Shown one piece after another: positions 2,983-3,420 of a stretch of 64,000 nucleotides of DNA. Numbering within the stretch: position 1 is the first letter of the stretch; each line of letters begins with the position of its first letter. A program made the translations under genes and the position numbers. The notes under the pieces are model-generated. The model ran no database searches and was not told the DNA's origin. It saw only the letters and a list, made by a program, of their open reading frames with translations. Origin of the DNA: Bdellovibrionales bacterium (GTDB lineage Bacteria > Bdellovibrionota > Bdellovibrionia > Bdellovibrionales > JAUICD01); contig OZ241865.1 of the NCBI GenBank assembly GCA_965203275.1, positions 12,822 to 76,821 on the forward strand, in the 5' to 3' direction.

Positions 2983-3420
2983 GTTCACTAAAAATAAACC
3001 AGCCTCTGGCTGTTTTTGGGCAATCAGCCCGACGGCTCTCGCCGTCGATCAAAGGCTGATTGCCTCAAAAATCCGTTTATTTTTAGTAGAGAGGATATCC
3101 TTGCCTCTTGACATCATGTTAAGGAAAAAGTTCTTTCTTACACCTTTTGGCTCTCGCCGTCGATCAAAGGCTGATTGCCTCATTTGATTTGCACTAAAAG
3201 TAAACTAGCCTCTGGCTACTTTTGGACATTGCTCTGACAGCTTACGCTGTCCAAAAAGAGCAATGTCGTTGGTTCACTAAAAGTGGTCTGACCTCTGGTC
3301 ACTTTCTGGCGATGACCACGATGGCTTTCGCCATCGATAAAATGGTCATCGCCTAGAAAGCTTGACCACTTTTAGTAGAAAGGATCCTTTCCTCTTTTAA
3401 CATGATGTTAAGGAAAAAGA
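2983..3420 (+). repeat. Family-A modular hairpin repeat cluster (2 complete H+T units at 2983-3130 and 3272-3420, plus 2 partial units between them)
   Basis: Read directly. Outer arms cactaaaaataaac/gtttatttttag and cactaaaagtggtc/gaccacttttag. Small hairpin with TCT loop. Long inner stem capped by tctc/ttac/tttc loops. Tail ggatcc...ttaacaNNatgttaaggaaaaag. Confidence 0.9.

Follow-up and report, generated by a model that had tools for sequence, protein, structure and literature searches.

A stretch of 64,000 nucleotides from a Bdellovibrionales bacterium (assembly GCA_965203275.1, contig OZ241865.1, positions 12,822 to 76,821), referred to here as the window, carries between its genes many copies of a palindromic repeat of about 155 bp, termed family A. 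The locus raises the question of what such a repeat is: a structured RNA, a site kept for the use of the host or a form of mobile DNA. An initial annotation described it as a hyper-abundant, modular hairpin repeat with complementarity-preserving variation in three helices and held the choice between RNA and a single-stranded-DNA transposition substrate to be undecidable. The analyses reported here favour a DNA-level element rather than an RNA gene. Family A is probably a non-autonomous interspersed repeat of the kind represented by REPINs, bacterial interspersed mosaic elements (BIMEs) and miniature inverted-repeat transposable elements (MITEs), one that has multiplied within a single Bdellovibrionales clade whose members are uncultured and probably live in association with hosts.

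Abundance and architecture of the repeat

The tail motif of the unit, ATGTTAAGGAAAAAG, was found 46 times in the window when up to two mismatches were allowed, compared with 0.48 expected occurrences. A profile search (nhmmer) detected 32 full-length units and approximately 25 fragments, bearing out the abundance reported from inspection by eye (about 30 complete and 15 to 20 partial copies), and a covariance model recovered 31 of the 32 full units with scores of 138 to 178 bits. Family A covers 6,467 nt, equivalent to 10.1% of the window and 38% of its DNA outside open reading frames (ORFs); the earlier figure of roughly 14% applies to the span of the clusters, including linkers and arrays of a heptamer, and not to the repeat itself. 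All but 7 of the family A bases fall within the 16 clusters delimited previously. The statement that the repeat fills nearly every intergenic gap was somewhat overstated, as 16 of the 25 gaps of at least 150 bp contained family A and nine did not. The repeat was extragenic throughout the window, with the sole exception of one pseudogene, a disrupted Rpn gene.

The body of the unit is an asymmetric three-way-junction palindrome, consisting of an outer stem (P1), a mini-hairpin (P2) and a long stem (P3), and is followed by a conserved non-palindromic tail that ends in ATGTTAAGGAAA. RNAalifold assigned 13 pairs to P1, 5 pairs to P2 and 23 pairs in three segments (P3a to P3c) to P3, together with two small hairpins (P4 and P5) in the tail. 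P2 (13 nt) and P3 (approximately 75 nt) are each a contiguous hairpin, whereas the arms of P1 are separated by about 95 nt. The canonical copy (3269-3425) folds at −68.8 kcal/mol as RNA and −47.2 kcal/mol as DNA, with z-scores of −8.5 to −10.9 (RNA or DNA), in agreement with the structure drawn in the initial annotation. As DNA, the P4 hairpin is of marginal stability (0 to −3.8 kcal/mol). Small hairpins are subterminal, with P2 lying some 17 to 19 nt from the 5′ end and P5 lying a few nucleotides from the 3′ end. Compared with the reverse-complemented 3′ end (TTTCCTTAACA), the usual 5′ end, TTTCACTAAAA, is identical at 8 to 9 of 11 positions.

Unpaired positions were also conserved. The apex of P2 in the unit is an invariant CCTCTGG; copy by copy, the TCT loop, previously said to be always present, was detected in 41 of 47 copies. 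The apical loop of P3 had the form TNNC in 38 of 45 copies, which corresponds to GNNA on the opposite strand and, in 28 of these 38, to GNRA, much as had been proposed. An A-rich internal loop is conserved on the 3′ side of P3. At the junction of P1 and P4, GTAG was present in 28 of 47 copies, the remainder having GTAA, GGAG, GGAA or ATAA, and the tail contains CTTAAC ... GTTAAG. Every P1, P2 and P3 variant listed in the initial annotation was recovered with matching arms.

Covariation and assortment of the helices

In an alignment of 59 matches, 94.8% of cells were paired, compared with 79.6% in column shuffles, and none of 500 shuffles reached the observed value. Sliding the partners by 1 to 3 columns reduced the paired cells to 32% to 49%. 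For the 47 best copies, the variable pairs of P1, P2 and P3a to P3c were 92% to 99% Watson-Crick, as against 54% to 69% after shuffling (0 of 1,000 shuffles reached the observed values). In the same 47 copies, the variable pairs of P4 and P5 were no better than shuffles, whether scored as Watson-Crick or as standard pairs including G:T. An excess of G:T in these tail helices (114 versus 17) was considered as a strand-specific RNA signal and rejected, since it vanishes against column shuffles; this excess is due to base composition.

The number of perfectly matched variants was 14 for P1, 8 for P2, 5 for P3a, 17 for P3b and 9 for P3c, and minimum spanning trees showed that at least 65 compensated pair substitutions are required to join them. 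The four-gamete test was violated in 10 of 10 pairwise comparisons between helices, indicating that the helices assort independently. Hence, a small number of whole-unit lineages does not account for the covariation, and the proposed complementarity-preserving variation in three modular helices withstood a check for lineage structure. Mean pairwise identity of full copies was only 72%, a mean divergence of 28%. Non-Watson-Crick pairs amounted to about 5% in P1, which has more mismatched chimaeras, versus 0.4% to 1.4% in P3a and P3c.

It had also been stated that the structure is clearly under selection. The stems are indeed kept, but selection is not the sole reading, as conversion or template switching would also explain the pattern. 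P2 and P3 are short contiguous hairpins, so that a single conversion tract would swap both arms together. Furthermore, DNA template switching has been documented to create and maintain matched hairpin arms with no need for selection (PMC8794818, PMC7202029). Arm matching could thus reflect selection on hairpin formation, templated repair or arm-to-arm template switching.

Evidence for a DNA-level element

Among approximately 1,900 stem pairs, the mismatches of P1 to P3 included 20 G:T and 26 A:C. A transition in one arm gives G:T or A:C equally, whereas under selection for an RNA structure G:U pairs are acceptable only in the strand that is transcribed; the equal rarity of the two classes therefore indicated that wobble pairs were not tolerated on either strand. 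In gaps between co-directional genes, five full units shared the orientation of the genes and 10 opposed it. Promoter-like sites within the units were no commoner than in shuffles and no recurrent promoter was detected. A terminator scan identified only the P2 mini-hairpin as terminator-like and did so on both strands. There were no matches to Rfam at gathering thresholds in the whole window, and a search of 2900-3600 with E values of up to 1 yielded nothing relevant, the sole low-scoring matches being microRNA noise on a heptamer array. A switch in repeat orientation along the window was rejected as a replication-strand signal, the clusters being too few and not mutually independent. With no wobble asymmetry, no orientation rule, no promoter and arrays of truncated and chimaeric copies, the data lean towards DNA in the choice that the initial annotation could not decide.

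Mosaic arrays and junctions

Most units occur singly or as direct tandems, and only four inverted doublets were present among the 32 full units. These doublets are arranged tail to tail and share a spacer of about 50 nt, which recurs between the tail motifs at 23424-23504, 27122-27201 and 57419-57491 as well as in the doublet at 10405-10748. In the latter, the outer 50 nt of the two units are 98% complementary.

Short 5′ fragments of 19 and 26 nt ending in CTG stand before full units (for example, at 10214-10251 and 58075-58114). Also present in the window are 3′ fragments that retain the whole tail, a few P1+P2 mini-palindromes (about 45 nt) and one head-to-head palindrome. As fragments lose either end, 5′ truncation of the type seen in retrotransposition was rejected. 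Other copies are chimaeric, with 5′ and 3′ arms drawn from different helix variants; mismatched arms were confirmed in both of the copies for which a recombinant origin had been suggested (10405-10550 and 23290-23435).

Junctions concentrate at (C/T)TG, including within the P2 loop (CCTCTG|). The left junction is (C/T)TG in about 65% to 70% of copies, a sequence too short and variable to be called a target. Five of about 55 5′ ends carry the full inverted tail motif directly 5′ of TTCACT; inverted-tail copies occur at 23172 and 26844 and, on the minus strand, at 23636, 44066 and, in a degenerate form, 39133. Tails are often followed by TTCCTT, a sequence resembling the collapsed junction between a tail and its inverted counterpart.

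The nearest relative of a full copy lay in another cluster, 4 to 58 kb away, with 80% to 94% identity for all but one pair. The exception is a 493-bp local duplication (60445-60599 and 60938-61092, 98.7% identity). Together with the mean identity of 72%, this distribution indicates that family A is old and diverse rather than the product of a single recent burst.

Arrays of a 7-nt repeat (GGATCCC, GGATGCC or AGATCCC) adjoin the tails of family A, with GATC in each unit and a BamHI site in many. Such arrays were located at 3437-3517, 23024-23139, 26700-26751 and 46977-47020, and further examples were seen by eye at about 31683-31715, 58300-58330, 58365-58445, 60285-60345 and 60640-60680. They often precede a free-standing tail motif (ACANNATGTTAAGGAAACAAG) and appear to form a further module of this mosaic.

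In several loci of related genomes, the P2 loop contains one or two copies of a 14-nt insert resembling TCGAGGCGAGCCTC (L012, 5657-5827 and 6009-6179; L013, 5200-5399; L015, 14335-14506). The 5′ fragments of the window join new units at the same point of the P2 loop (CCTCTG|) as this insert, and the loop resembles a hot spot at which units break or are joined. Locus L020 contains a tandem array with a period of 228 bp (2284-2893), in which a full unit plus a 5′ half is present in each of three periods. This array shows local amplification of composite blocks in the closest relative with a fetched multi-gene locus.

A disrupted Rpn gene and a shared junction

The doublet at 57286-57626 lies within a gene of the Rpn/YhgA family (Transposase_31, TIGR01784), of which a C-terminal part (56821-57294, minus strand) and an N-terminal part (57625-57940, minus strand) remain. 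The upstream ORF fragment matches model positions 2-74 and the downstream ORF positions 192-273. Relative to intact homologues, about 108 codons are missing and the doublet of approximately 340 bp occupies their place.

A locus from another sample, L023 (ERZ25070167), contains the same Rpn fragment, the same unit and the same junction. Identity between the two loci was 95.0% (284/299) for the gene fragment and 95.2% (138/145) for the adjoining unit, indicating that this unit drifts at the same rate as the pseudogene. The seven differences in the unit included one compensated change of a T-A to a C-G pair in P3b and two loop changes; no stem position was left unpaired, as compared to about four stem hits expected by chance at this one locus. 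The spacer was 65% identical. In the second unit, P1 and the tail were 86% identical and the P3 hairpin was 57% identical, so that exchange of a whole P3 hairpin between copies is seen directly. Beyond this unit, the L023 array continues with other units.

Distribution among relatives

The nearest named relatives of the GyrA and PyrG proteins of the window were from metagenome-assembled genomes (MAGs) of Bdellovibrionota or Pseudobdellovibrionaceae, with 62% to 70% identity. Copies were counted in fetched loci of relatives. The window contains about 0.5 full units per kb. A similar density was observed in L020 (PyrG, 88% identity), with 7 full units in 13 kb (about 0.5 per kb), and L023, with approximately 95% nucleotide identity at the one shared locus, had about 3 full units in 8.5 kb. 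L015, from a 2.66-Mb genome (GyrA, 83%), had 3 full units in 22 kb (0.13 per kb), and a single full unit was detected in 21.7 kb of L021 (PyrG, 80%; 0.05 per kb). L014 and L022, from a 2.10-Mb genome (GyrA/PyrG, 83%), had 1 full and 1 partial unit in 44 kb (about 0.03 per kb), and no full unit was found in the 24 kb of the outgroup loci L016 and L017 (GyrA, 73%). The density of family A thus differs by more than 10-fold among relatives. Synteny around gyrA, pyrG and the Rpn locus breaks at family A clusters.

A pattern scan of species-representative genomes detected the repeat in OZ253553.1, a Bdellovibrionales MAG of 2.94 Mb and the source of L021. In that locus, within 20429-20659, a solitary unit begins where a tRNA-Ala(TGC) gene (20429-20504) has its last bases, directly past the CCA.

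Blastn searches gave no match to family A in plasmids or phages and, with a word size of 11, none in 5,426 Escherichia coli genomes. A 17-base pattern produced 10 single matches to viral contigs, which were treated as chance because a BLAST check, which may have covered only part of the loci, found nothing. Two metagenome matches to a 27-base gapped pattern were both in coding sequence of 46% GC without hairpins and were likewise attributed to chance. Family A, not recognised as a known element at the outset, therefore continues to match nothing in Rfam, plasmids, phages or E. coli genomes.

Copies of family A in the window

Copies are listed here by cluster with their strand and either the covariance model (CM) score in bits or the E value of the profile match (nhmmer); "positions" refers to positions in the unit. 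The place from which the family was originally described (2983-3420) does hold what was claimed: a full unit with P1, P2, P3 and tail (2980-3136, +; CM R1, 171.7 bits), a fragment of the P3 apex (positions 55-88; 3149-3182, +; E = 2.5e-5), a 5′ part cut off by the next unit (positions 4-83; 3189-3265, +; E = 8e-13) and the canonical full unit (3269-3425, +; 171.4 bits). The second cluster begins with two stuttered 19-nt 5′ fragments, TTTCACTAAAAGTGGTCTG (10214-10251, +; TRF period 19, 2.9 copies, 100%), before a full unit (10249-10405, +; 173.1 bits). A doublet then follows, with a left unit in which the P1 and P3b arms are mismatched (full; 10406-10557, +; E = 2.9e-43), the conserved spacer (10558-10594, recurring in the other three doublets) and a full right unit (10595-10748, −; 157.4 bits), after which there is a 5′ fragment (positions 2-31; 10744-10773, −; E = 1.7e-3). 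Two full units are present at 13602-13758 (+; 172.3 bits) and 13788-13944 (+; 176.6 bits). Only short 5′ fragments and a P1+P2 mini-palindrome (16377-16420) were detected at 16356-16467 (nhmmer and sequence).

At 23172-23284 (+; sequence and nhmmer), an inverted tail motif abuts a 5′ fragment and is followed by a 5′ part (positions 4-88). The adjacent doublet consists of a full left unit with mismatched P1 arms (23288-23444, +; 156.5 bits) and a full right unit in which TTCACT is immediately preceded on the 5′ side by the inverted tail motif (23484-23640, −; 164.4 bits). The next cluster starts with a 26-nt 5′ fragment ending in CCTCTG and preceded by an inverted tail motif (26843-26869, +; sequence). 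It continues with a full unit (26867-27023, +; 175.8 bits), a 3′ part forming the left of a doublet (positions 34-154; 27022-27139, +; E = 6.6e-23), a full unit (27181-27337, −; 170.1 bits), a 26-nt 5′ fragment (27335-27362, −; E = 3.8e-4) and another full unit (27397-27553, −; 171 bits).

Full units at 31505-31661 (+; 178 bits) and 31879-32034 (+; 138.2 bits) are separated by a tail-only fragment (positions 111-154; 31719-31762, +; E = 2.7e-5). Downstream of them are a 3′ fragment (positions 75-154; 32041-32120, +; E = 6.5e-21) and a 26-nt 5′ fragment, TTTCACTAAAAGTGGTCTAGCCTCTG (32129-32154, +; sequence), with a P1 arm matching that on the 3′ side of the following unit. The latter unit is full and has a replaced 5′ P1 arm (32152-32306, +; 142.3 bits), and the cluster includes the head-to-head palindrome of two left halves (32308-32425; sequence and nhmmer on both strands). 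A P1+P2 mini-palindrome (39064-39110) and 5′ fragments make up 39061-39136 (sequence and nhmmer). Beyond a full unit at 41539-41696 (+; 165 bits) there are a 3′ part (positions 45-154; 41708-41817, +; E = 9e-30), a 26-nt 5′ fragment (41822-41849, +; sequence), a full unit with a replaced 5′ P1 arm (41847-42003, +; 164.7 bits) and a further full unit (42039-42192, +; 151.9 bits).

A 26-nt 5′ fragment (43683-43708, +; sequence) precedes the full unit at 43706-43862 (+; 174.7 bits), which is followed by a 3′ fragment (positions 70-154; 43875-43959, +; E = 1.4e-19) and by a P1+P2 mini-palindrome (43996-44042), 5′ fragment and inverted tail motif (43996-44085; sequence and nhmmer). The full unit at 46811-46970 (+; 152.2 bits) is succeeded by a tail motif after a heptamer array and then a P3 fragment (47024-47090, +; nhmmer and sequence). 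Four full units lie on the minus strand at 47880-48036 (166.2 bits), 48066-48220 (145.2 bits), 48341-48497 (chimaeric arms; 143.6 bits) and 48498-48654 (178.5 bits), with a 5′ part (positions 5-68) and a P3 fragment (positions 39-88) at 48218-48337 (−; nhmmer).

An internal fragment (positions 60-138; 56270-56352, −; E = 4e-11) precedes full units at 56356-56512 (−; 170.6 bits) and 56651-56807 (−; 140.4 bits). The doublet in the disrupted Rpn gene comprises full units at 57286-57439 (left, +; 158.4 bits) and 57471-57626 (right, −; 167.7 bits), the latter having the junction shared with L023. Stuttered 19-nt 5′ fragments (58075-58114, +; TRF period 19, 3.7 copies) lead into a full unit (58112-58270, +; 150.8 bits), and 58328-58550 (+; nhmmer and sequence) contains two tail-only motifs, which follow heptamer arrays, and a subsequent 3′ part (positions 34-110). 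The last cluster contains, on the minus strand, a 3′ fragment (positions 64-154; 60347-60437; E = 8e-24), the two full units of the local duplication (60445-60599, 143.6 bits, and 60938-61092, 143.5 bits) and, between them, a full unit (60688-60846; 159.6 bits) and a 3′ fragment (positions 64-145; 60849-60930; E = 1.6e-21).

Other features of the window

The window has a GC content of about 36% and includes the housekeeping genes gyrA, pyrG, purL/purQ, pgk, tpiA and secG and a type II secretion pseudopilin operon. Eukaryote-like proteins are also encoded, namely, ankyrin repeats, two RCC1-repeat proteins, an mTERF-domain protein and several TPR proteins, and their presence suggests that the Bdellovibrionales host has a host-associated lifestyle. 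The mTERF-domain gene (1552-2967, +; E = 3.5e-7) has a stop codon that abuts the first family A cluster; the ankyrin-repeat gene is at 44352-45245 (+), and the two large RCC1-repeat genes are within 48897-56134 (+). Directly downstream of a repeat cluster, 14139-16175 (+) encodes a 678-amino-acid protein of repeated helix-turn-helix units (HTH_Tnp_1 and related) with a 303-bp tandem coding repeat (3.9 copies, 14993-16174); a DNA-binding partner of family A is a possible role for this protein.

A 1,516-amino-acid ORF without a Pfam match (18407-22957, −) contains about 9 to 10 tandem coding repeats of 150 bp (50 amino acids) at 19527-21554. A different repeat, with a 229-bp unit in 2.1 tandem copies of 100% identity, is located at 61089-61567, and a related copy near 41331 (41290-41380) shares ...CCCGTACGTACCTCT...TTCCCTCAAAATTTCCCTTCCTTGAA with it. 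The cumulative GC skew reaches a minimum at about 35500-36000, where the genes change from a predominance of the minus strand to one of the plus strand. This position could be a replication origin or the boundary of a local inversion; the window lacks dnaA.

Discussion

Lineage-specific amplification, disruption of one gene, maintenance of palindromic arms and exchange of hairpins were all observed for family A. On the reading that we consider probable, units or tail-to-tail inverted doublets would be copied to new intergenic sites, the folded single strand being the probable substrate of a trans-acting enzyme, for which a Y1 HUH protein of the RAYT or IS200/IS605 type would be the leading candidate. 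The lack of target-site duplications, asymmetric ends, subterminal hairpins and inverted doublets would place family A close to the IS200/IS605-RAYT world by analogy. Resident copies would recombine heavily, with gene conversion swapping whole hairpins, while template switching or microhomology joins at (C/T)TG would generate stuttered 5′ fragments, truncated copies and head-to-head palindromes, and local tandem duplication would supply further copies. At the DNA level, either selection for hairpin formation or templated repair of one arm from the other, or the two acting together, would preserve arm complementarity. Synteny breaks at clusters, gene disruption and similar effects on the host would be expected by-products and not designed.

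Several results weigh against this reading. No Y1 or RAYT gene was found among the window ORFs of at least 100 amino acids or the called genes of L014 to L023. The only intact insertion sequence (IS) of the window (37580-38928, with a DDE_Tnp_1 transposase ORF at 37685-38812) has terminal inverted repeats of 37 nt (86% complementary) that are unrelated to family A, and it was rejected as the mobiliser on these grounds. The Rpn (Transposase_31) protein was rejected as well, since the only copy in the window is the repeat-interrupted pseudogene and no paralogue from the same genome was among the best matches. No target-site duplication was detected at 20 inspected copies from six genomes, making transposition itself a presumed step, and a comparison of gyrA and pyrG orthologues gave no clean filled/empty pair, gene order being lost beyond the gene itself. 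The stems kept in the unit shared with L023 hint, at a single locus pair, that units are maintained where they lie, an outcome not expected of purely selfish spread, and copies of the window that are 80% to 94% identical to their nearest relative nevertheless have near-perfect stems. Three unpaired features are both conserved and strand specific, namely, the TCT loop of P2, the T and C that bound the P3 loop and the A-rich internal loop, and these would also suit RNA or a host-level role. This fixed polarity implies that whatever reads the fold reads one strand, a property that fits recognition of single-stranded DNA as well as RNA.

A structured non-coding or cis-acting RNA family, kept by selection on the folding of a three-way junction whose loops are GNRA-type when the complement of the strand first drawn is read, would account for a fold that is very stable on both strands (z-scores of −8.5 and −10.8), for the compensated changes, for the GNNA apical loops and conserved P2 and A-rich loops and for an architecture retained across genomes with GyrA about 83% identical. 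We regard it as improbable: neither strand has a wobble excess, orientation is unrelated to the flanking genes, no recurrent promoter or terminator and no Rfam match were found, many copies are truncated, chimaeric or palindromised, the GNNA loop and the A-rich bulge are on opposite strands, and the unit shared with L023 evolves as fast as the adjacent pseudogene. Selection by the host for a BIME-type DNA element (a gyrase or nucleoid-protein site, a replication or transcription barrier or a bidirectional terminator) would agree with a strictly extragenic location, apart from one pseudogene, with stems preserved at 28% mean divergence and in the L023 unit, and with the absence of an orientation rule, as a palindrome works either way round. 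Such a role would hardly be expected to leave a more than 10-fold difference in density among relatives with none in the outgroup, arrays that turn over fast and contain many broken copies, and nine sizeable gaps without family A, and it, too, is doubtful.

A classical MITE, a deletion derivative of a DDE-type IS that moves by cut and paste between terminal inverted repeats CTTTTTCCTTAACAT ... ATGTTAAGGAAAAAG, also seems unlikely. The five copies with an inverted tail directly 5′ of TTCACT form a subfamily that keeps the DDE model alive, as do the partial match between the two ends and the TTCCTT that follows tails, but most 5′ ends lack the inverted tail, target-site duplications are absent from the inspected copies, the sole intact DDE element has unrelated ends and no parent element was present in the approximately 270 kb examined. 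The attC sites of integrons have a similar size (about 60 to 150 bp) and a conserved structure with variable sequence, and the CTTAAC ... GTTAAG of the tail recalls their R boxes. A chromosomal integron cassette array is nonetheless effectively refuted by gene content and mixed orientation: units occur on both strands between gyrA, pyrG, purL, pgk and tpiA, the R-like boxes are 5 to 6 nt apart rather than at the two ends, and the window has no integrase gene. As a long shot, the three-way-junction fold may be actively kept in place at more than 1,000 loci and read, as single-stranded DNA or GNRA-loop RNA, by a dedicated partner of neither RAYT nor IS200 type, with P3 and P1 serving as exchangeable specificity cassettes. 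A structure-specific recombinase of a new type or a eukaryote-like nucleic-acid-binding protein of the lineage are possibilities for this partner, and the repeat would then be a new class of structure-defined mobile or domesticated element.

The preferred reading of family A as an interspersed DNA repeat invites comparison with known systems. REP/REPIN-RAYT systems are likewise extragenic, very abundant, hairpin forming, vertically persistent and free of target-site duplications, and they share ordered tandem clusters; inverted doublets with a spacer occur in family A too, but number only four among the 32 full units. Compensatory changes are common in REPIN hairpins (PMC3116915), and TnpA-REP binds one strand of the folded REP and cleaves at adjacent CT dinucleotides (PMC8266576). 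REP palindromes have an invariant GTAG (or CGTC) tetranucleotide tag at one end (PMC3733652, PMC8266576), whereas GTAG is present in only 28 of 47 family A copies. A REP is a palindrome of 20 to 40 nt, while the family A unit, at about 155 nt, is four times larger and combines three helices with an asymmetric tail, and the flanked RAYT gene has no counterpart in the window or the annotated loci. BIMEs are similarly intergenic mosaics of a few module types with recurrent linkers in both orientations, but the modules of family A are far larger and have no similarity to any E. coli genome by blastn. The IS200/IS605-derived palindrome-associated transposable elements (PATEs) resemble family A in having no terminal inverted repeats or target-site duplications, subterminal hairpins, asymmetric ends, strand-specific polarity and a recurrent (C/T)TG at the left junction. 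They are without a counterpart of the large covarying P1/P3 body, no TnpA or TnpB was found for family A, and the 4 nt before the foot of P2 are variable, a misfit to the fixed guide sequence of IS200/IS605.

ERIC/IRU, Correia/NEMIS, Rickettsia RPE and pneumococcal BOX elements are, like family A, highly structured intergenic repeats of 100 to 170 bp scattered through one lineage. BOX is modular, and RPE has expanded in host-associated bacteria. Family A differs from Correia elements in having neither long terminal inverted repeats nor a TA duplication and from RPE in not being in frame in genes; as these four groups are described, it is set apart by helices that are hypervariable with complementarity kept. 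Judged by these comparisons, family A would not be assigned to REP/REPIN, MITEs with terminal inverted repeats, integron attC sites, Rfam families or the enterobacterial repeats; the comparison with IS200/IS605-derived elements points both ways.

No description of family A was found in the searchable literature, and we know of no such repeat family in Bdellovibrionota. Mosaic palindromic interspersed repeats as such are well known; what is notable is the density, the three-helix architecture with exchangeable stems and the phylum. Family A behaves like a recombining selfish mobile element and does not in itself point to a new mechanism. Should the window be representative, the 2.58-Mb genome would hold on the order of a thousand copies, which would be among the densest small-repeat loads known in a bacterium. 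With at least 65 compensated changes, hairpin swaps and densities that range from zero to very high, the family constitutes a natural data set on arm matching in palindromic DNA, and it bears on whether covariation proves RNA structure and on repeat-driven rearrangement in host-associated genomes.

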